DNA of 63,118 nucleotides, filler included, from Phoronis australis (Eukaryota; Animalia; Phoronida), in assembly GCA_002633005.1 (NCBI GenBank). It is 10 parts of 10 records of this genome, joined end to end, with 100 filler letters (N's around TTAATTAATTAA, not from the genome) between each part and the next. Parts side by side here need not be neighbours in the genome. Positions count along the whole stretch, not along the records: positions 13,083 to 17,279 come from NMRA01002669.1; 9 more parts are not named here. One strand, given 5' to 3'. Positions 5,040 to 26,251 of this stretch are shown one piece after another (position 1 is the first letter of the stretch; each line of letters starts with the position of its first letter). A program made the translations under genes and the position numbers. Below the pieces are notes generated by a model. It saw only the letters and a program-made list of their open reading frames with translations. It was not told where the DNA came from and did no database searches.

Positions 5040-6437
5040 CAGTGGCGGATCTANTCATGACAGTGACGGATCTAGGATATCACAAGGGGGGGCCCAACAT
5101 TTTGTCCGGCTGTAAGCATTTGCGCCAACCACGATTGTTGATGCGTATAGCACCGAATGGGGGGAGGTCGGGAGGGGAAAATTTTTCTGTTTTTTCCTCT
5201 AAAAATCAAACATTTTCCTTGATTCCTAAAGTATTATCGAAGAACAATAAAGCATAAAAAATTAAGAACGTGTCAAACAGGAAAAAATGCACATTCCACA
5301 GACTCGAACTCACGACCTAGCGAATAGAGCACGCGTGCTTTACCACTACACTACCACGACTTACCTACTAATCCTTTATTAAGAGACCTACTTGTTTGCG
5401 GTCCACAGCGTTTGCGTGCGAAACCTACTTCATTTTGTAATGCTTATTACATGTTTTATATTTTGTGCAATCGGTTCTGAACAAATTTGTTGTATTTAAA
5501 GTAGTCTTCAAATGCCCAAAAGACCAAATCCGTTTTTCGTGTTGGCAATAATGACGGGNAATGGGGGGAGGTCGGGAGGGGAAAATTTTTCTGTTTTTTC
5601 CTCTAAAAATCAAACATTTTCCTTGATTCCTAAAGTATTATCGAAGAAAAAAAAGCATGAAAAAATTAAGAACGTGTCAAACAGGAAAAAATGCACATTC
5701 CACAGACTCGAACTCACGACCTAGCGAATAGAGCACGCGTGCTTTACCACTACACTACCACGACTTACCTACTAATCTTATATTAAGAGACCTACTTGTT
5801 TGCGGTCCACAGCGTTTGCGTGCGAAACCTACTTCATTTTGTAGTGCTTATTACATGTTTTATATTTTGTGCAATCGGTTCTGAGCAAATTTGTTGTATT
5901 TAAAGTAGTCTTCAAATGCCCAAAAGACCAAATCCGTTTTTCGTGTTGGCAATAATGACGGGATTGCTTTGGAAATCGTCTTAAGTTAAGGTTTGACAAA
6001 GAGAGAATTATGAGTTTCCGAGTGTTTCACTAAGGCTTCGATTAAAATTCACATCTTACCAACAGCTTCTGTTTTTTCGTCGTCACTCAGATTCCATTTT
6101 CTTTAAAAAATGACGTAAATTTTCTTCATAGCACAGTGGAGCAGACGACGGAAACGGGGTCGTAGTGCGCAGCGCCACTGCCGGTCGCCTGGAATATCGC
6201 GGGAGAGCCTATACTTAGCCACGAATGCGCCCTGTTCCGAATTTGATACTTGAAATTGGATCTGAGCCCCCCCCAACAACACTAAAACTGCACACATTTA
6301 ATTCTTTTTTCATCCGTGTAACTTTTAATTACTTGGGTTAATTAATAAACTCAACATTTCCCTACGCACTTGCTGTTTTATTTTTTTTGCGGCAGCCAAG
6401 GGGGGAGAGGCCCGGGCCCCCCCTAAATCCGCCTATG
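5040..6437. mobile_element. Non-autonomous DNA element (MITE-like) with CAGTGGCGGATCTAGG-type termini and G/C-run subtermini
   Basis: Left end CAGT(G/G)(G/A)CGGATCTAGGATATCACAAGGGGGGGCCC at 5040/5061. Right end GGGCCCCCCCTAAATCCGCCTATG at ~6414-6437 is an imperfect inverted match. The same left end recurs at 33227. No clear TSD. Confidence 0.45.
5157..5962. repeat. ~400-420 bp near-identical tandem duplication joined at a single N (5559); contains a minus-strand tRNA-like segment
   Basis: 5157-5558 matches 5560-5962. The minus strand of 5298-5357 and 5702-5761 reads GTGGTAGTGTAGTGGTAAAGCACG...GAGTTCGAGTCTG (A-box and B-box like). Confidence 0.85.
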
Positions 6438-13082: not shown

Positions 13083-15433
13083 GTATGAATATATGTATGA
13101 ATGTATGTATGAATGTATGTATGAATGTATGTATGAATGTATGTATGCATGGATGTATGTATGTATGTATGTATGTATGAATGTATGGATGTATGTATGA
13201 ATGTATGTATGTATGTGTGTATGTATGTTTGAATGTATGTATGGATGTATGGATATATGTATGTATCTATGAATGTATGTATGTATGTATGGATGGATGG
13301 ATGTATGTATGGATGTGTGTATGTATGAATGCATGTATGGATTTATGGATGTATGTATGTATGAATGTATGGATGTATGGATGTATGTATGAATGTATGT
13401 ATGAATTTATGGATGTACGTATCTATGAATGTATGTGTGTAGGAATTCATGGATGTATGTATGTATGAATGTATGTATGTATGGATGGATGTATGTATGG
13501 ATGTATGTATGTATGAATGCATGTATGGATTTACGGATGTATGTATGTATGAATGTATGTATGTATGGATGTATGTATTAATGTATGTATGAATTTATGG
13601 ATGTATGTATCTATGAATGTATGTATGTATGTATGAATTTATGGATGTATGTATGTATGACTGTATGTATGTATGTATGGATGTATATATGAATGTATGT
13701 ATGTATGTATGTATGTATGGTTGTATGGATGAATGTATGTATGTATGAATGTATGGATGTATGTATGAATGTATGTATGAATATATGTATGAATGTATGT
13801 ATGAATGTATGTATGTATGGATGTATGTATGTATGTATGTATGAATGTATGGATGTATGTATGAATGCATGTATGTATGTATGTATGTGTGTTTGAATGT
13901 ATGTATGGATGTATGGATATATGTATGTATCTATGAATGTATGTATGTATGTATGTATGGATGGATGGATGTATGTATGGATGTATGTATGTATGAATGC
14001 ATGTATGGATTTATGGATGTATGTATGTATGAATGTATGTATGAATATATGTATGAATGTATGTATGAATGTATGTATGAATGTATGTATGTATGGATGT
14101 ATGTATGTATGTATGTATGTATGTATGAATGTATGGATGTATGTATGAATGTATGTATGTATGTNNNNNNNNNNNNNNNNNNNNNNNNNNNNNNNNNNNN
14201 NNNNNNNNNNNNNNNNNNNNNNNNNNNNNNNNNNNNNNNNNNNNNNNNNNNNNNNNNNNNNNNNNNNNNNNNNNNNNNNNNNNNNNNNNNNNNNNNNNNN
14301 NNNNNNNNNNNNNNNNNNNNNNNNNNNNNNNNNNNNNNNNNNNNNNNNNNNNNNNNNNNNNNNNNNNNNNNNNNNNNNNNNNNNNNNNNNNNNNNNNNNN
14401 NNNNNNNNNNNNNNNNNNNNNNNNNNNNNNNNNNNNNNNNNNNNNNNNNNNNNNNNNNNNNNNNNNNNNNNNNNNNNNNNNNNNNNNNNNNNNNNNNNNN
14501 NNNNNNNNNNNNNNNNNNNNNNNNNNNNNNNNNNNNNNNNNNNNNNNNNNNNNNNNNNNNNNNNNNNNNNNNNNNNNNNNNNNNNNNNNNNNNNNNNNNN
14601 NNNNNNNNNNNNNNNNNNNNNNNNNNNNNNNNNNNNNNNNNNNNNNNNNNNNNNNNNNNNNNNNNNNNNNNNNNNNNNNNNNNNNNNNNNNNNNNNNNNN
14701 NNNNNNNNNNNNNNNNNNNNNNNNNNNNNNNNNNNNNNNNNNNNNNNNNNNNNNNNNNNNNNNNNNNNNNNNNNNNNNNNNNNNNNNNNNNNNNNNNNNN
14801 NNNNNNNNNNNNNNNNNNNNNNNNNNNNNNNNNNNNNNNNNNNNNNNNNNNNNNNNNNNNNNNNNNNNNATGTATGGATATATGTATGTATCTATGAATG
14901 TATGTATGTATGTATGTATGTATGGATGGATGTATGTATGGATGTATGTATGTATGAATGCATGCATGGATTTATGGATGTATGTATGTATAAATGTATG
15001 TATGTATGGATGTATGTATGAATGTATGTATGAATTTATGGATTTATGTATCTATGAATGTATGTATGTAGGAATTCATGGATGTATGTATGTATGAATA
15101 TATGTATGTATGGATGGATGTATGTATGGATGTATGTATGTATGAATGCATGTATGGATTTATGGATGTATGTATGTATGAATGTTTGTATGTATGGATG
15201 TATGTATGAATGTATGTATGAATGTATGTATGAATGTATGGATGTATGTATGGATGTATGTATGAATGTATGTATGTATGTATGAATTGATGAATGTATG
15301 TATGTATGTATGTATAAATGAATATATGTATGTATGGATGTATGAATGTATATATGGATGTTTGGATGTATATACATGTATGTATGAATGTATGTATGGA
15401 TGTATGAATGTATGTATGTATGAATGTATTTAT
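13083..15433 (+). repeat. Long complex (ATGT)n satellite with ATGA/ATGG variants, spanning an N gap (14165-14869)
   Basis: Continuous tetranucleotide repeat; it is the source of the MYVC/HTYI pseudo-ORFs. Confidence 0.97.
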
Positions 15434-15434
15434 G

Positions 15435-15626
15435 GGGGTGTATGGAGGATCCAGGGAGGGGTAGTACCTTTGGTGGGGGGCTTGTCGTACTCCTTAGGGG
15501 GTGGCTCGTCCACCTTTGGTCCCCACCTGTCCTCAGCTCTCCCCTGTGGCTCCCAGTAGCTGTGGCATGCGCAGCGGACACACCCCGGGACACCGCTTCA
15601 ACAGGCGGGCTAAACCAGATTGAGGG
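15435..15626 (+). ncRNA. Candidate variant HDV-like ribozyme at the RTE 5' end (expanded L3)
   Basis: P1 GGGGTGT 15435-41 / ACACCCC 15580-86; GG 15587-88; P4 CCGCTT 15593-98 / AGGCGG 15603-08; J4/2 GCTAA 15609-13; P3 GGC 15548-50 / GAC 15577-79 (one mismatch); L3 starts TCC; P2 15537-47 / 15614-26 is imperfect. Confidence 0.5.
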
Positions 15627-16200
15627 TAGCCGACGGGTCTCAAACCCTCGGTGTGTTAGGGACTGCCTAGCCTAGCATGTGAAGACTGGCTCCGACAGAC
15701 TGAGCGGATGAGACCCCCAGTGGTCCAACGGTCAAGACGGCGATTTCAGCAAGCGCCGTGGAGCGCTCAGAGCACGACGAGGCACCAAAGAAGTCATGGT
15801 CATCCACTTCAGCAGGGGTAACCTCCAGCCTTAACAGTTTTCTGTGCCACTGGATCAAGGTTTCCTCAGCCGAGAGAGTGGGATTGCCCCAGTGCAACGG
15901 CTTTACCACTTTAAAAACCATCACGCACAGGTTTGTTGTGTGATTCATCATTTCCGATCAGCACCTTTCAAGTCCTGCGGCGAAACTGCGCGTAGGCGGC
16001 CTTCGGACCAGTGGTCGCTCTTTCTCTGAACCCAGGGCATCAGAGAAGTCCGTTAGCATCCAGGGCTACTTTAGAACAGCACTGCCCACCCTCGCACGAA
16101 CGAGGGGGTTAGAAAAGGTACCCCAAACATTGCTTGCCCCATCAAGTCTGGCCAGCTTGCCGCGGTTGGCAGATCATCCACATGCGGTCGATCAACAAAG

Positions 16201-17279
16201 AACAAAAGAAAACTAATCTTCGGAGCATGGAACGCCCGAACACTGATGGATAGAGACACTGCAGCCAGACCAGAAAGAAGGACTGCACTTGTAGCTAGAG
16301 AACTCCAGCGCTACCGCGTAGACAATGCAGCTCTCAGCGAGACGAGATTCGCTGATGAAGGGTCACTGAAAGAGGAGAAGGGAGGCTACAGATTCTTCTG
16401 GAAAGGGAAACCAGAGGCTGAAGACAAGAATTTATGGAGTAGGATTTGCTATCAGGTCCACCATGTTGAAGAACATCCCTACTCTTCCCACTGGTGTCAA
16501 TGGGCGCCTAATGAAGCTTCGCTTCCCACTGAACAAATCTCGCCACATCACCATCATCAGCGCCTACGCCACAACGCTCACTAGTCCCGAAGAAGTCAAG
16601 GAACGCTTCTACGAAGACTTTGACCAGATCATCAGGACAACTCCCCCGAACGACAAGCTTGTAATCTTCGGAGACTTCAACGCCCGAGTCGGAAATGACA
16701 GCAGTTGGGAAGGTGTGTTGGGACGGCACGGAGTAGGTAAACTCAACAGCAACGGCCTGCTCCTACTAAGTAAATGCGCTGAGCACAACCTGTGTATCAC
16801 CAACCCTATGTTCAGACTAGCAGCCAAGTATAAGACCACCTGGATGCATCCCAGGTCCAAACATTGGCACATGATAGACTTTGTCTTCGTTCGCCAGCGG
16901 GATATGCAGGATGTCAAGATTACCCGGGTAATGAGGGGCGCTGAATGCTGGACAGATCACAGCTAGTGCGATCTCTTTTCAACGTGCACATCGTTCCCCC
17001 GCAGCGCCACAGGCAGAAAATCATCAGGGCATCATTCAACACAGCCAGGTTAAAGCATCCTCTACACCTTCATCGGTTTCAGTATTCTCTGGACGACACG
17101 CTATCAGGCAATACACCACTTGTTGGAACCAGCACTGAGAAATGGGCGCAGTTCAAGGAGGCCGTGACAGAAACCGCAGAGACGGTACTGGGACCGAATC
17201 CCCGGGTGCACCAAGACTGGTTTGATGAAAACGATGAAGCCATTTCTACAACCCTTGATGCCAAGAAGAAAGCCTATGT
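16201..17279 (+). pseudogene. Frameshifted RTE ORF: AP-endonuclease domain and start of linker
   Basis: Motifs GAWNARTL, AALSETR, IISAYA, GDFNARVG, TTWMHPRSKHWHMIDF, CWTDH and QDWFDEND are split over three ORF segments, with frameshifts near 16430 and 16962. Confidence 0.93.
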
Positions 17280-19489
17280 NNNNNNNNNNNNNNNNNNNNN
17301 NNNNNNNNNNNNNNNNNNNNNNNTTAATTAATTAANNNNNNNNNNNNNNNNNNNNNNNNNNNNNNNNNNNNNNNNNNNNAATTTCAAGGGCATGGAGTCT
17401 TCTACATGTTCATGTTATTATTTTTAGTTTTCTCGTGGGGGCAGCTTCGCTATAAGGGTACAGCTTACTGCTGGTTTTTCACAAGACGGAAACGTACCTC
17501 CACGGAAACAGTTCCAGTGTTACCATGGTAACCGATATTGCAGTGTCGGTGCCGTTTTTATTGACATTGATCATGAACCTATCATGTGATATCAAAATTG
17601 TTCAGAAACGATTCTGTTTGAAGCAGAAACTGGAGTAGAAAATTTGGTCAAAAATGACTCATTCCACACCCAGAAATTGCCTCATTTTGCCCCCCAGAAC
17701 TCTTCCCTTGTATCTCCTAAACCACCAAACTTTGTGGTGTCATACTTCACCTATTTTCTCGCATCCCTAATGTGATTTATCCGACTAAACACGGATCTGA
17801 ATGGTTGACCCCCCACCTTGCCGCTTGTTGGCTGTACAGTGGTCGGTGGATCCGTGGACTGATACTTAATCAGTGAAGAAAATTGGTTCTCAAAATTAAG
17901 GCAGGTTATACATGTATCAGACCATTACCTATTTGAATACAGTGAAAGGGAGATTACCAAGATATCAGTGCCAAACCACATACATGTAGTCTCGGATTAT
18001 GACGGGATGGCCTAAGTTTTTCAATTCATTTGAAAGGGAAACCCGTCGAATGTATATTCCATGTCAACTTCACATTCTACAAACATCAGGATTTACTCTT
18101 GTTTTACTGTTCTTCTCAAAAATCGGAATTGTGGTAACAAGTGTTGAAGGTGAGTCACTCTCACCAACACTTCTCATAATTTCAGTGTTGTTGGATACAT
18201 ATTTCATAAACAATTTCGAATGCGGTCCCTATTGATATGTTAGGCTTTAATAACGCATACATATCACTCCTTTCACTTATCTCAATTCAAAATGAGACCG
18301 GGTCTTTTCTAACGAGTTCTCTAAATAACGTTAACTGTGATTAATAGAGGTTTGGGAATACACAACCAAACACGATTTTTCCATTAATTTAATTTACAGC
18401 TGATGTCGTTTTCTTGTACTGTGCACACCTGAAAGTTTCGTTATACGAAGGAAGGAAATTTAAATTAAAACTGTGTCATATGCAGCATACGTTTTCCTAA
18501 AATACTACCCGACACATGTACACAGCATAAGCGCACCGGAATGTCCAAAGGTATATTGTACAACGCTGTAATAGGAATTCCTTTTGTCCCGAAGGTCCTC
18601 GTTTCGAAATGTCAGGCACATTTTTACAGAATATGACGGAAGACGTCCAGGTGTACTTGTATAACTAGAACATAGTTTAACCTTTTACTAGTATCCGGAA
18701 TGAAGAGAGATCATGTTTGGATAAAATTAAACCTGAAGACTTTCCTTGAACATCATGTGTTCACGCCTATTTGACGTTTTATCGACTTTCTCCTATTGGA
18801 ATTGCGGACCAAAGCACACTGAAGAACAGTAGTAATAGCTCGTTGTAACTGGGTGGGATTATAGAGTAATTTGACCGGGAAACCATGGGTGCGAATACGT
18901 CTTTATCGCAAAACGTGGAATTCCCGTGGCGCGAATATTGAAGTTACAAATGTTATTGATGGGCATTGCGCCTGTGTGGGTAAATACCACGAGATTCGGA
19001 TGTTGAAGTGTAATCCGGTGAGGACATATTGTGTAGAATAATTCAAGTCTTAAGATATAATGTGTCTCTGGATGACCATTTTGCCGAATTTCTTGGCGGC
19101 GACGTGATATGAACTAAGAGGTCGCCGGCAGCATCACTTGGCGGCCAGACTGATTATGTTGACCACATTACCGAAACTTTAGGGAACTACTGCGACACTG
19201 ATAGTCTAACATCTTAATTCATTCTTATCCCCAAGTTTTAGGCAAGTCACCATCCTTGTTAAGTCGTCCACATCTTTCTCCAGTATTCGACTGGCCATTT
19301 TCCTACTTTACACTTTGAAGTCCAAGGGATGACACAATTTTAATTCGATGGTTAGAAATTTTCAGTCCAAAGGCTTAATTAAAAGTGCCTGTGCCGGATA
19401 CAGACAGGTTACAAGTACATGTACGTGGATGACTGTTTGATCCTAGTTTGCTCTTCGTAACGTTACCATTAAATTTATCAATGTGAATC

Positions 19490-20000
19490 CCCTTACAAAA
19501 ATGAACTTAAATTTTTCGCTGAAAGTTTTTAGAAAATAACTTAAGTTTTAGAGGAAAACTTAAGTTCTTCCGAAAAACTTAAGTTTTTAAAAGAAACTTA
19601 AGTTTTAAAACTTAAGTTTTTCGCCAAAAACTTAAGTTTTTCAGCACAATATTAAGTTTTTAAGAAAACTTTAGTATTCAGGTGTAAAACTTAAGTTTTC
19701 ACAAGTAAAATTAAGTTTCAAGTAGTAACTTAAGTTTTCATGAAAACTTAAGTTTTTTGTACTAACAAAACTTAAGTTTTCGTGATAACTTATGTTTATG
19801 ACAAAACTTAATTTTTTTGTAATTTTAAAAACATAAGTTCTCCTGACTTCTTAAGTTTTTCGCAAACTTTAGTTTTTCCAATTATAGAAACTTAAGTTTT
19901 CCTGACTTCATAAGTTTTTCAGAAAATTGGATTTTTTCATGTGTGGAAAACTTGAATTTTCTAAAAACTCTAAGGTTTTTATGTGATGAAAATTTACGTT
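19490..20000 (+). mobile_element. Unpaired foldback-type terminus: array of AAAACTTAAGTTTT palindromic subrepeats
   Basis: Starts CCCTTACAAAAATGAACTTAA, the same as the terminus at 20840, and is followed by many ACTTAAGT units. Confidence 0.75.
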
Positions 20001-20839
20001 TTCAAGTTTTTTAAATTTGAATATAGTGAGATATTTAATTTTTGGTTCGAAATTTTCCCATTATTTTCCAACAAAAATTATTGTTTGCTCATGCAAAACC
20101 CATCATCTTATAAAAATGTTGCCCGAATGCTTCCATTTGAACATTTATATAGATACAAACCATGAAACGACGAACGTTTAACCTGGTCAGTACAGCTTTA
20201 GTGCCATTACGTAATGATTATCGCACGTCTTTGTGAATTTAAATGTAGACGAACATCCGGTGACCAACAGCAGTAAGAATGCACCCAATGTTAATCCCCT
20301 GAGACACTGACCTGGTCAGTACAATGTAATCAATAGAACTCATGCAATTCTTAAACGTAGTTATTGTGCAAGTTTCCTTTGTGTTGAGTTGTATTCGTAA
20401 GGCAGTTTCCACCGGAAGTAACAGTTTGAATTTTATAACCGACAGCCAACTTCGAAGAAAAAGTCGTGTGTTGGCAAGCCCATGACAATGAAGTTCATAT
20501 TACTATGAGCAGAGTCAGCAAGAAGACATTTCAGATGTTTTGGAATTCAGGTTGGTGCCAGAGAGCGTTCTAAAGTCGATTGGCCACAATCGGTGGTGTG
20601 ATTTCCAACGAACGTATTAAGTTCAGTTCTTATTGTCAGCGTGTCAGCCACTCACGAGCCACGCTCTCACAAACCGACATGGAATCATTCTGTGTGTGAA
20701 TTATCTTATTACTTCTAATGCGTAATATACTTCTGGAGGTCCATCAGAGGAAACCATAGCGTTCACATTAGGCTATTGTTCTTCTGTCTTCTGAGGTTGT
20801 GTCAGTGTGATCAATGCAAGGGGGGGACTACCAAGGCAA

Positions 20840-23800
20840 CCCTTACAAAAATGAACTTAAGTTTTCAGCAAAAAACTGAAGTTTTTGGTCTGAAAAACTT
20901 ATGTTTTCATTCGCGAAAACTTAAGTTTTTGGCGAAAACTTAAGTATTTTGGAAGAACTTTTTTGGAACAAACTTAAGTTTTCATAACTTAAGTTTTCAA
21001 AAACTTAAAATCTAAAAACTTAAGTATTTCAAAAACTTAAAATTTCTGAAGTTTTAAAAAATTATGTTCGTTCCAAAAAACTTCTTCCAAAATACTTAAG
21101 TTTTTGGAAAACATGAGTTTCAGAAACTTAAGTTTTTGAAAAACTTAAGTTTTAGAACAAGTTTTAGTAAGAAACATAAGTCATAAAGTTTTCCGAACAT
21201 AAGCTTTCAAGGAACTAACTTTTGAAAACTGAAGTTTTTTAAAAGCAATAAGTCTCAATAGGACGGGCATTCAAAAATTTCGATTTTCACTAAAACAAGA
21301 GTGGAGTACAGGAACAAATTTGATGATTCTCAACAAGATTTAACAAACCAGAGTTCTATTAACATTTCATTAACAGTGATCAATTGGAGCAAAGAAAATG
21401 TACTTTCTAAAATACACTAGATCCTTAAAATAAGTGAACATAAGTGAAATATCAAAATCTTAAAAACCAGAAAGATTTCAAAAATCAGTTCATCAAGTGT
21501 CATGCATACAATGTAGTCAAAACTAAATGGGGCTAATAATATATTCATATTTTCATCGTTCTCAGTCTATGACAATTATGCGATAACTGAGGGAGCAAAC
21601 TACATAGCCAGGAAGGACTACAACAAAAGTCTACGTTTCAACAGCACAGACTTTTTCAACTAAAATTACAGCAATGACACCAAGAATAACAAATCACTTA
21701 ATATGCCAAATCCAAGAATATCCACAGAGACAAAAGCATAACATAAAACGTAACAGGTAAGTAAAAGTTTATCGACAATTGCCACAGATCTGATTTTGAG
21801 AAGTACAATCCTTATGATAGAAATAATACCAAGAATCACCTATCATTGTTTTCAACCTGAACAATATCAATTTAAAAGTCAAAGTTTCGTTTTGTTGACA
21901 ATCATAATAACAGTAAATCCAACACACTCCATGGTGCGAACAAGTTTCACTAAAAGTAACCCTTAGTACAACCTGGCTATACGAGATGGAAATTAGAAAA
22001 CTTAGACCGTTGACCACAAAAATATTATATCTCCTTTAATTTAAAGCTACTGAACTTCATACACATACATGTATCTATAGAGCCTTTCATACTAACATCG
22101 ACGTGTTGTTGGGAGTTAATGTCAGTATGAACGCCTTAACTTTGGTCTTGGAAGGAAGTTAACAGAGTCAGTTAACTTCGCACTAAACAGGTGGATTTAA
22201 GTACTTAGGGTCAACGCTGCCACGCAGTGTAAACGATCAACTCCTGTCCTATCGAAGTTATTGCTAGAGGCCACTGTTATCATTAACAATTGCATAGTAG
22301 TGTGATGGCTAATAGTTACTTATACCTTGCTCTAATAATCACCAATCAATTTAAAAATAAGTTTTATGTCAATTAACACATGTAAATGTTTCCAAATTGT
22401 CACATCTTAGCGTGCAGTGCTACCTTGCGATACCTTCGATCACGAAAGTGTCAACTACTGTTTACTTCGAAGATCATTAACTACCGAAGCCAGAATGAAC
22501 AGTCCAGTTAACTTCGCAGTATACATCTACGTCGATGCTACGCTCAGACAAGAGTTACAGCACACATCACGAATTTTTGTCCGACCGGTCGGAAATTGGT
22601 CGACGACCGACCGTCGACCGGTTCGTCTAGCGGACCAGCAGCCGACCAACAACGGTCGGCTGGGAGCCGTCTGCTGAGTCGCCTCTGTGGTCGGCACTTG
22701 GGTCGGCTAAGTGGTCGGCTAGCGTAGATGACCAATTCGGATTAAGCATGTCCTTGGTCAGCAATTACCATTTTATGACTTAGCGGGTGAACTTTGGACA
22801 AACAAACATTTAACTGTTCGCTGTTCGTTTACCAGTGGCAACTCCGGTCTTGACATCGGTTTATCAACTTGTGTTCAACTATTGAATGGAGCTAAAATCG
22901 AATCAACCTACAAATACGAAGTGCGTGACATTACACTAGCCTAAAACTTTATGTAGAATTAATGACGAAGTGGTAAAATCAAACGTTAAGTGATATCGCG
23001 GAAGCATAATTTCTAACTTTAGATATGAGACTTTTTATACAGTACAGTGTGCATAAAGGAATCACGAAATTTGAAATTTACAGTAACATTGCATAAAAAT
23101 CAGAATACAACACTGGATATTTTACGACCTCAAGTGTTTTCATGCCGCGGAATGCTTAACAAGCAGCACTTATTCGCGCTCATCTGTTATTGCTCTTGAT
23201 CATCACTTCACCGCGCTGTATATTGCGCTTTACCGCATATAATTATTGCTTATTTCTGTATAATTTCTTAATATGTTGGTACAGCAATAGAACCCAAGTT
23301 TACTTTAGGAACAACATAAGCAATGGTTTGAACATAGCGCCGATATTAAATCATGGGCGCATGAAAGCGGAAGACTGTGATCATCATTCTGAAATTGTTG
23401 TCACTTTCGCAGAAAAAATCTTTTCGAAACTACAGCCTTCCTATCTATACAGCCAGTTGCATGAAGACTATTTTCAAAATACAGCAAGGTCCCACTGCTT
23501 ATTTAGATCAAACAGACCTCGAAACTTCACACAGCCCGGATAGTTACGCTTGTCACCTCGCCGAAAAGCTTGTATCAACATTAGTTCAAGACCGGCGTGT
23601 GTGCGTACAAAATCTAGAAGTCAATTGGCATTCAAGTTGGCCGTTACGGCCGTTTAAACGAAAAACATCCGACGTCATCTTCTCATGTAATTCTCTGCCT
23701 TTTTTAATGAAAAAACGTATGTCGTCGTTTTGAAAATAGTTCATTGTGAGACACGCGACACTTCGAAAATGTTTTCAACATCTCCCATTATGTAGAGTTG

Positions 23801-26251
23801 TGCATTTTGTTATCAGATTAACGAATTAAACAATGAAAAGTTCATCAAAAAATTGGAATTGTAGTTTATTGCATTTGCCAACAGTTTCATCATTTGATAA
23901 AGAATATTAATTAATTTGTCATAGAACTTGAACGAAAAAGTTACAGAATACGATACCTTGTTAGCCTGAAGTCCAACTTTTAATAACACAATAAGTTTTG
24001 TCATATGCACGGTTTGTTCTAGATTGTAATAGCATAATAGGTGACCATGTGCATGTTTTGTATTCAAGTTGCATAGAATAAAATTGTTTTGAATGTCGCG
24101 AATCCAGGATTAAAACTTCATTCAAAACAGTATGTGGAAAGCTGATCCACTGCGGTGCATGCTTGAAGTAAACTTGCAAACCAGTCTTGCACTTGAATCC
24201 TGGAGAGTAATTGGTTAAATTTTGAGTTTGAACACTATTGTCTAGGCTCTGTATATAAGTCAGGAAGATTTAAAAATCAGTGTTGTATAAACAGCACGAT
24301 AAATATCCAGCCAGTTAAGTTGTCTTATACTGGTAGCTTTTACCTGTCTGTTATTAAAATTTGTTGTCTTCATTGCAGAGTGTGCCTTCAACAATCGTTG
24401 GATAAGGAAGGCTACCTAGACAACACGACGTGCGCACTTACGAACTGCAGTTCATGAACCTATGGGTTCAGTTATCTGAGCTCAGAAACGCGCGTTTGTA
24501 GTCACAAAACATGGATTATTACCAAGTGAAGCTAAACGAGCAGATCTAGCTAAACAAGATTAAGTGGCTTGTGATCTACCCTAGGGCCCTTTCACATTGA
24601 CTTAACTCTTGTCTGGGCGGAGCATCGGCGTATACTGCGAAGTTAACTGGACCGTTCATTCCGGCTTCGGCAGTTAAAGAACTTCGAAGTAAACAGTAGG
24701 TAACGCTGTCGTGATCGAAGTTATCGCAAGGTAGCACTGCAAGCTAAGCTGTGACAACTTGGGAACATTTACATGTGTTAATTGACATAAAACTTATTTT
24801 TAAATTGATTGGTGATTATTAGAGCAAGGGATAAGCAACTATTAGCCATCACACTACTATGCGATTGTGAATGATAACAGTGGCCCCTGGCAATAACATC
24901 GATAGTACCGAAGTTGATAGTTTATACTGCGTGGCAACGTTGACGCTAAGCAATTTAATCCACCTGTTTAGTGCGAAGATAACTGGCGCTGTTAACTTTC
25001 TTCCATGACCGAAGTTTAAGCATTGATACTGACATTAACTCCCAAAATCTTCGACATGTGTATGAAGTTCAGCAGCTTTAAATTAAAGGATAACAAATAT
25101 TTTTGTGGTCAAAGGTCTAAGTTTTCTAATTTCCATCTGGTATAACCAGGTTGTACTGAGGGTTACTTTTAGTGAAACTTGTTCGCACCATGGAGTGTGT
25201 TGGATTTATTGTTTTTATGATTGTCAACAAAACGAAACTTTGACTTTTAAATTGATATTTTTAAGGTTGAAAACAAGTATAGGTGATTCTAAGCACTATT
25301 TCTAGCATAAGTAATGTACTTCCCAAAATCAGACCTGTGGCCATTGTCGATGAACTTTTAGTTACCTGTTACGTTTTATGAAATGCTTTTGTCTCTGCGG
25401 ATATTCTAGGATTTTGCATATTAAGTGATTTGTTGTTCTTGGTGTCATTGCTGTAATTTTAGTTGAAAAGGTCTGCTGTTGAAATGTAGACTATGTAATC
25501 ACATTTTCTTTGGTTGTGTTTCATGATTTGGTAGTGATTTCTCTGTTTGTACATTCCTGGCTCCCTTAGTTAGCGCATAATTGTCATAGAGTGAGAACGA
25601 TGCAAATATGAATATATTATTAGCCTCATTTAGTTTTCACTGCATTGTATGCATGACACTTGATGAACTGATATTTGAAATGTTTCTGGTTTTTGAGATT
25701 TTGATATTTCACTTATGTTCACTTATTTTACGGAACTAGTGTATCTTAGGAAGTGCATTTTATTTTCTGCAATTAATCACTGTTAATGAAATGTTAAAAG
25801 AACTCTAGTTTGTTAAATCTTGATGAAAATCATTAAATTTGTTACTGTACTCAGCTCTTGTTTTAGTGAAAGTCGAAATTTTTGAATGCATGTCCGTTTG
25901 AAACTTATTGCTTTTAGAAAAATTTAGTTGTCAAAAGTTAGTTCCTTGAAAAGTGATGTTCGGAAAACTTAGTTTTCAAAAACTTAAAGCTTTGATGACT
26001 TATGTTTGTTGCTAAAAACTTGTTCCAAAACTTATGTTTTCCAAAAACTAATAAGTATTTTGGAACAAGTTTTTTTGGAACGAACTTAAGTTTTTGAAAA
26101 CTTAAGTTTTCAGAATTTAAGTTTTTGAAAAACTTAAGTTTTCAGAACTTAAATTATGAAAACTTAAGTTCGTTCCAAAATACTTAATTTTTCACCAAAA
26201 ACTTAAGTTTTCGTGAACTTCGATGAAAACTTAAGTTCATTTTTGCAATGG
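20840..26251. mobile_element. ~5.4-kb foldback-like element with ~1.7-kb inverted arms (20840-22557 / 24602-26251) and ~2-kb spacer
   Basis: Termini CCCTTACAAAAATGAACTTAAG / CTTAAGTTCATTTTTGCAATGG. Outer ~300-400 bp are ACTTAAGT subrepeats. The inner arms are reverse complements, e.g. the mirror ORFs 21769-22017(-) and 25105-25305(+), and CCAGTTAACTTCGCAGTATA ~22504 vs TATACTGCGAAGTTAACTGG 24631. Confidence 0.9.

Follow-up and report, generated by a model that had tools for sequence, protein, structure and literature searches.

HDV-like ribozymes that sit at RTE retrotransposon 5' ends are already in print (PMC6765202; PMC5786205); here and below, published systems are described from the available portions of the papers cited. 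The published search descriptor expects an L3 of the form TYYHCG(N)Y and a J1/2 of at most 51 nt (PMC4870747, supplement). In drz-Agam-2-1 from Anopheles gambiae, J1/2 is structured (P1.2), P2 is extended to about 12 bp and J4/2 reads GCUAA; P1.2 with the extended P2 accelerates the ribozyme, and the distal ends of P1 and P2 make no tertiary contacts (PMC4908430). The same 2016 paper states that for the HDV family, unlike hammerheads and hairpins, no stabilising peripheral tertiary contacts had been proposed (PMC4908430).

We analysed a stretch of 63,118 nucleotides from Phoronis australis (the window), in which positions 15435-15626 hold all elements of an HDV-like ribozyme in order (P1, J1/2, P2, P3, L3, P3', P1', GG, P4, J4/2, P2'). 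From the comparison of this copy with homologous loci, we consider it likely that the RNA of the intact family adopts an HDV-like fold that cuts just before G15435 and carries a conserved hairpin in L3 as well as a predicted pseudoknot in which a bulge of P1.2 pairs with the loop of P4, the copy in the window being the decayed 5' end of a LINE. Like published RTE HDV-like ribozymes, the element has a double-pseudoknot core at the exact LINE 5' end, a conserved 3' side with differing upstream flanks, and a predicted release from co-transcripts. Unlike them, as far as they are described in PMC6765202 and PMC5786205, it has an L3 insert with a hairpin, usually A at the C24 position and a predicted pairing between the bulge and L4. 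It shares with drz-Agam-2-1 the structured J1/2, the extended P2 and J4/2 GCUAA, whereas the latter combines an L3 of 7 nt with a P1.2 that is much shorter and a P4 that is very long (PMC4908430). With genomic HDV it has in common a 7-bp P1, a 3-bp P3, a two-pair P1.1, the U20 and G25 equivalents and the J4/2 C, whereas HDV has an L3 limited to U20-U27, a short J1/2 and a conserved C24 (PMC1874588; PMC6326823).

Layout of the element in this copy

The features of the element and its surroundings are as follows (all on the + strand, with the evidence in brackets).

14870..15434, +, (ATGT)n satellite, the flank that holds the inserted element (sequence, tandem repeat)
15435..15441, +, P1 5' strand and 5' end of the element, cleavage predicted just before G15435 (P1 partner, flank divergence, covariation)
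15442..15536, +, J1/2 of about 95 nt, a predicted long P1.2 rod (fold z, covariation)
about 15462-65, +, conserved UAGY bulge in P1.2 (alignment)
15483..15487, +, 5-nt P1.2 bulge TGTCG, 5' side of the predicted third pseudoknot (covariation)
15537..15547, +, P2 5' strand, extended, about 11 bp (family reads, fold, covariation)
15548..15550, +, P3 5' strand GGC (pairs with family GCC)
15551..15558, +, L3 core, equivalent to HDV U20-U27: U, CC (P1.1), G15556 (G25 equivalent) and A15558 (loop comparison)
15559..15576, +, inserted L3 hairpin and the following G (anchored pairing against shuffles, unbiased scan)
15577..15579, +, P3 3' strand, GAC in this copy and GCC in the family (family contigs and reads)
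15580..15588, +, P1 3' strand ACACCCC (15580-86) and P1.1 GG (15587-88) (sequence, covariation)
15593..15608, +, P4 hairpin of 6 bp, whose loop bases 15599-603 are predicted to pair with the P1.2 bulge (family reads, covariation)
15609..15613, +, J4/2 GCTAA with the predicted catalytic C15610, equivalent to HDV C75 (sequence)
15614..15626, +, P2 3' strand (family reads)
16075..17279, +, AP-endonuclease part of the LINE frame, broken over three frames (Pfam PF14529, PF03372)

An earlier note on this DNA had pointed out that GGGGTGT, just after the satellite, is complementary to ACACCCC 145 nt downstream and that the HDV order follows; both strands lie where it described them (15435-41 and 15580-86), followed by GG at 15587-88, the 6-bp P4 at 15593-608 and GCTAA at 15609-13. 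In the family state P1, P1.1, P2, P3 and P4 form the nested double pseudoknot, a kind of structure that folding of single sequences cannot reveal. G1 pairs with a pyrimidine (G15435-C15586) in a P1 of 6-7 bp, L3 contains the U20 and G25 equivalents, and J4/2 has C at the catalytic position of CNRA (C15610 in CTAA), where no variant occurs among the matches listed (family contigs, RNA reads). The structured J1/2 and extended P2 are those of the large P1.2-type ribozymes (drz-Agam-2). By its anatomy the element would thus be a ribozyme of the HDV type, with cleavage predicted, and its L3, 26 nt long with A at the C24 position, falls outside the canonical form of the published descriptor.

A relaxed HDV-like descriptor, composed after the fold had been seen, matched the 63-kb window on both strands only at 15435-15626; it found nothing when the 1,845-nt element was doublet-shuffled 5,000 times, nor in 50,000 shuffles of the 200-nt head of the element. 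Rfam searches over 14000-20000 at E up to 10 returned no ribozyme match, HDV-type models included, and the matches obtained were repeat-driven microRNA only.

The copy in the window differs from its family at several paired positions. The family base at 15578 is C in all four DNA contig runs, which carry the labels of four different organisms, in all covering reads of three RNA runs and in run X5. At 15600 and 15619 it is G in the four contig runs and in every covering read of three RNA runs, and at 15542 every covering read of three RNA runs has A. The copy-specific changes are therefore C15542, A15600, A15619 and the P3' GAC, which leave P3 with a G-A mismatch, P2 with two mismatches and one pair between the bulge and L4 broken (A15600); the family bases restore P3, all 11 P2 pairs and that one pair. 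This bears out the earlier description of a decayed element with a mismatched P3 and an imperfect P2. P3 of HDV-like ribozymes is highly sensitive to mutation (PMC9901934), and G, the predicted -1 base of this copy (G15434), is the slowest in HDV (PMC1874588). Since P3 is broken, P2 has two mismatches, a kissing pair is lost and G stands at -1, this copy is probably inactive.

The family is transcribed, with 56, 48 and 22 reads in three RNA runs. First mates lie mostly on the + strand, and library strandedness is not on record; under common protocols this orientation means antisense RNA, and the family reads may be antisense. At 15950, 9 and 7 reads in two RNA runs leave the element for one other sequence, and read depth drops to zero just past this point; what is expressed may be a derivative with two ends and an internal deletion, or else one truncated locus.

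Homologous loci and the element's 5' end

One pattern scan was run over metagenome contigs, with TGGCTCC, GCC, part of P1', GG and GCTAAAC fixed and the rest of L3, J1/2, P2 and P4 left free. It returned 101 loci, which were sorted by P2 complementarity, a downstream APE-RT frame, an upstream P1 strand or likeness to other true loci, the L3 hairpin playing no part; 37 were judged true homologues and 64 chance matches, the latter serving as controls. When 19 of these homologues and the window were used to build a covariance model, none of the 37 scored below 42.6 bits and none of the 64 above 21.6 bits. As P3, UCC, part of P1', GG and GCUAAAC were fixed by the pattern, their invariance in the loci is not evidence.

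Of the 37 loci, 27 have a seven-pair P1 partner at a distance of 90-140 nt upstream of P3, as against 0 of 62 chance matches; of the other ten, three lack upstream DNA and seven are truncated or decayed. With P3' GCC restored in the family state, the P1 and P3 complementarity on which the earlier note had staked its reading is in place. P1 covaries at positions 1, 2 and 6, so that three of its seven pairs change on both sides, and its first pair is G-C in 19, G-U in 5 and A-U in 3 of the 27 loci. P2 and P4 also covary among the aligned loci. Covariation, which the earlier note had named as a check on its fold, is present in P1, P2 and the L3 hairpin; P3 was fixed by the search pattern, and its support comes from unbiased reads instead.

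Homologous copies begin at the P1 strand. In 15 of 17 pairs of near-identical ribozymes, the flanks before G1 match at only 6-14 of 30 bases, and the remaining two pairs share their whole upstream flank. In the window the P1 5' strand directly abuts the end of the (ATGT)n array (15434/15435). A run of five G starts at 15434, so the junction can also be read 1 nt earlier; G1 was assigned to 15435 because a P1 of 7 bp sets it there. Two P1-like strands, 8-9 nt apart, occur at the 5' end of many families (L031, L058, L063, L092, L093, L099); at 15435-15450 only the first is complete, and G1 thus stays at 15435.

Across the 27 loci, the base before G1 is most often T (17), with A and G in 4 each and C in 2. 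Cleavage of HDV is fastest with U at -1. RTE target duplications are reported to begin with T (PMC6007223), and the T excess therefore has two candidate causes.

Downstream of the ribozyme, the window sequence has no long frame before the frameshifted AP-endonuclease frame, which begins about 450 nt away and runs into the assembly gap at 17280, where this copy ends. This AP-endonuclease part is at most 73% identical to full-length APE-RT proteins, and the named matches include those of corals, lancelets, mantis shrimp and turtles. All five loci tested, and P0001, encode APE followed by RVT_1 downstream, and identity between the downstream frames of the loci and the best relatives of the window ranges from 75% down to about 25-30%. 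The arrangement found is that of the RTE clade, a single frame with AP endonuclease then reverse transcriptase and no ORF1, and the element is likely the decayed 5' end of a LINE retrotransposon of this clade. The earlier placement of the fold at an RTE 5' junction stands as regards the junction; the RTE name derives from the single APE-RT frame and not from named reference elements.

Given that G1 coincides with the junction, and by HDV chemistry and the precedents of R2, L1Tc and RTE elements (PMC6765202; PMC3774820; PMC5786205), we predict a role in cleavage. The element would be transcribed inside host RNA as a read-through transcript, the fold would cut just before G1 and free the element RNA from the host transcript, and this cut would set the 5' end of what is afterwards copied into DNA.

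Several observations concern the distribution of these elements. The window ribozyme is nearest to that of L015 (84%), and the window protein is nearest to that of L063, whose ribozyme is only 69% alike to the window's; RNAs with a short L3 are alike although their proteins stand apart. These relations suggest that 5' modules have been swapped between lineages. Runs carrying the labels of several different organisms, and a metagenome, contain sequence highly identical to 15435-17270, which could reflect horizontal transfer, close kinship of the hosts or mixed samples. Viral contigs gave no match in the protein search or the pattern search, and among prokaryote genome contigs one RTE-like fragment (L102), lacking its 5' end, was found. 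In L046 the P3'-P1'-GG stretch is duplicated in tandem (2408-2575), and L090 has two identical copies in opposite orientation.

The inserted hairpin in L3

L3 is 7 nt long in 8 of the 37 loci and 26-32 nt long in 29, with none between. Only four loci fit the L3 of the published descriptor, and it is this mismatch, together with the J1/2 of about 95 nt (against at most 51), by which that descriptor misses the element. The earlier note had foreseen that a variant of this kind would escape descriptors with a 7-8 nt L3, and the class with a hairpin in L3 would indeed escape the published ones on three counts.

In the window L3 comprises 26 nt (15551-76), with a 5-bp stem of GCTGT (15559-63) and GCAGC (15571-75) and a 7-nt loop. 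As the earlier note had it, this is a hairpin, and it remains paired across families despite sequence change. The 22 distinct long loops, the window included, begin with UCC-N-N-G-N-A and continue with a hairpin, which in 19 of them is followed by G. The insert is 18-24 nt long and lies at the 3' end of L3: HDV L3 is U20-U27 (PMC1874588), and the first eight loop bases equal this in length, which places the insert between L3 proper and P3'. Since model R1 left the 26-nt hairpins out of register, hairpins were counted in an anchored register, where on average 4.3 of five pairs formed; the corresponding values were 2.05 for shuffles, which never exceeded 2.8, and 2.07 for 29 chance matches. Sixteen of the 22 hairpins are perfect, three have four pairs, one has three, and two have stems shifted by one base. 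The stem varies by family (GCUGU, GUCACC and ACUGC types) with several pair types per position, and an unbiased pairing scan also recovers the hairpin.

In this copy GGC 15548-50 can also pair with GCT 15559-61, leaving the loop UCCCAGUA, so one might read a canonical 8-nt L3 and take the extra sequence as an insertion between P3 and P1'. The triplet is GCT in only 12 of the 22 long loops, however, and in seven it is GTC, TAC or GAT, which cannot close P3; it covaries with the 3' strand of the hairpin instead. Moreover, loose ends of contigs reveal a sister family with GCC directly after a 7-nt loop, as in the short-L3 sisters generally, and this fixes the register of P3. The 8-nt reading is thereby largely refuted by the aligned loops, and we regard it as hardly tenable.

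G at loop position 6, the G25 equivalent, which the search pattern left free, occurs in 22 of 22 distinct long loops and in all short loops, as against 12 of 29 chance matches, and A at position 8 occurs in 22 of 22, as against 4 of 29. By HDV chemistry, C15610 would act as the general acid, and a U15551-G15556 reverse wobble and the CC/GG of P1.1 would build the active site; the hairpin leaves the core after the eighth loop base. At the HDV C24 position, where published descriptors require C, 21 distinct long loops have A (13), C (7) or G (1). This A is the main argument against activity and a further, second deviation from the consensus in print; an R2 ribozyme whose L3 had undergone C-to-A and G-to-A changes showed no activity (PMC3774820).

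One could accordingly suppose that families with the hairpin no longer cleave, the fold being kept for binding or the initiation of translation and an internal promoter setting the 5' end. IRES-like roles and internal promoters have been described for other retrotransposon HDV-like folds (PMC6765202; PMC3383444), the 18-nt insert stands only two bases from the G25 equivalent, and in the RNA runs molecule ends do not pile up in the way that would mark 5' ends in vivo, the reads at 15405-36 having been cut by a repeat filter. Yet A at position 24 is equally found in families with a short L3 (three of four distinct loops), the G25 equivalent is invariant without constraint from the pattern, and families with the hairpin start exactly at the P1 strand and have compensatory P1 changes (L015, L029, L058). 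A loss of cleavage thus appears very unlikely to us, and a cleaving family remains the preferred reading.

One family with a short L3 combines the loop UCCACGC with J4/2 GCUAA, which is nearly the core of the active drz-Agam-2-1 (L3 UCCACGU; PMC4908430). On a tree of the APE domain (13 rows), presence of the hairpin requires three changes, two of them forced by well-supported branches, which points to more than one gain, loss or swap. Sister families with a short L3 dispense with the hairpin, which is probably a tolerated peripheral domain.

A search for a partner of the hairpin loop covered the ribozyme plus 220 nt of downstream sequence. Its best candidate, the motif GCATG near 15677, is complementary in just 7 of 18 sequences (1.3 expected) and was rejected. 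The motif itself, GCATG(T/A)GA-AG-CTG at 15676-15689, is conserved downstream of the ribozyme in many families.

The J1/2 rod and its predicted pairing with the P4 loop

J1/2 folds with z = -2.9 in the window and with z of -2 or below in 13 of 20 sequences, and both the distal helices and the proximal helix of P1.2 covary. The P1.2 bulge at 15483-87 is complementary to five bases (15599-603) of the 6-nt P4 loop, and the lengths of bulge and loop are constant. Eighteen of the 20 aligned sequences have both sides, the bulge being absent from L046 and L057, and 86 of their 90 cells are Watson-Crick; permuted partners gave a mean of 56.9 and a maximum of 74 in 100,000 tries. One kissing pair is broken in each of the window, L047 and L058. 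Four of the five pairs change on both sides. In an unbiased scan of 7,316 window pairs, this contact ranked second, after P4, and it ranked second again in an alignment made by a different method. Both sides are present in 13 of 19 held-out rows, and all 13 pair fully with G-U included, many of these rows being near-copies of training rows and L075 and L096 more distant.

On the best RNA tree, which was built without the columns of this contact, concordant changes numbered 15 (bootstrap range 13-16), compared with a null mean of 4.8 and a maximum of 13 in 200,000 draws. This tree is weak, with only two well-supported branches, and tests on independent pairs fell short of significance for that reason. 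The pairing occurs in families with long and with short L3 and is therefore independent of the L3 hairpin. Taken together, the comparative data predict a third pseudoknot. The earlier note covered neither a structured J1/2 nor a pairing between it and the P4 loop, and this predicted pairing is the added structural novelty here, better tested than the claim of the L3 hairpin.

We propose that P1.2 and the long P2 pinch P1 and P2 together, as drz-Agam-2-1 would suggest, and that P1.2 bends back and grips the tip of P4 with its bulge, which would brace the P1/P1.1/P4 stack and speed folding. J1/2 joins the ends of P1 and P2 in HDV-like ribozymes (PMC4908430), and L4 caps the far end of the stack, so that P1.2 must turn back for the pairing to form. 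In most families the proximal part of P1.2 bulges at the conserved motif TAGYACC (15462-15468 in the window), which the L034/L039/L042/L092 group lacks; this bulge could be the hinge that lets P1.2 fold back.

The need for such a turn leaves room for another interpretation, in which the pairing is real without being an activating clamp: it would belong to a fold that is alternative or inactive, or join two RNA molecules, and so time or limit cleavage or serve packaging. Covariation is blind to whether a pairing is intra- or intermolecular and to whether it belongs to an active or an inactive state. Contacts between dimers are also hinted at by palindromes of 6 nt in 7 of 21 distinct L3-hairpin loops, with 1.6 expected (11 of 20,000 shuffles), but this count spans related families, and 5 of the 21 loops lack even a 4-nt palindrome. 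The pairing uses only bases that the helices of P1.2 and P4 leave unpaired and so fits the active secondary structure, and the lengths of bulge and P4 loop do not vary. We hold the alternative to be unlikely, and continue with the clamp as the preferred reading.

A peripheral base-paired contact that locks core helices would resemble the loop-loop contacts of hammerheads and the kissing loop of the VS ribozyme (PMC4908430; PMC8495972), which have unrelated catalytic cores and in which the activating effect has been measured, whereas it is predicted here. A pairing of P1.2 with L4 is not described for drz-Agam-2-1 in the available text of PMC4908430, and neither a J1/2-L4 pairing nor an L3 hairpin is described for the HDV-like class in the accessible portions of the literature searched, Ruminski 2011 and Webb and Luptak 2011 aside. 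The covarying 5-bp contact between J1/2 and L4 would be a stabilising peripheral contact for the HDV family, and a hairpin beside G25 would mean that the active-site loop accepts a grafted domain, offering a new attachment place for sensors in engineered ribozymes. Such RNAs, hidden from published descriptors by the L3 hairpin, the predicted bulge-L4 contact and the long J1/2, may account for how 5' ends are set in a widespread group of LINEs.

More broadly, and with an even chance in our estimation, many animal RTEs may carry a triple-pseudoknot HDV-like class, invisible to published descriptors, in which the kiss between P1.2 bulge and P4 loop acts as an activating clamp like the hammerhead loop-loop contact. 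This class would tolerate a hairpin by the active site and would have been passed as a module between distant RTE lineages, and HDV-like ribozymes would then be far commoner in animal genomes than counted.

Elsewhere in the window, arrays of palindromic AAAACTTAAGTTTT-type units with periods of 14-59 nt lie at 19523-21181 and 26082-26212, and tandem repeats occupy 2-1229 (451-bp unit, 2.7 copies) and 5155-5963 (404-bp unit, 2 copies).
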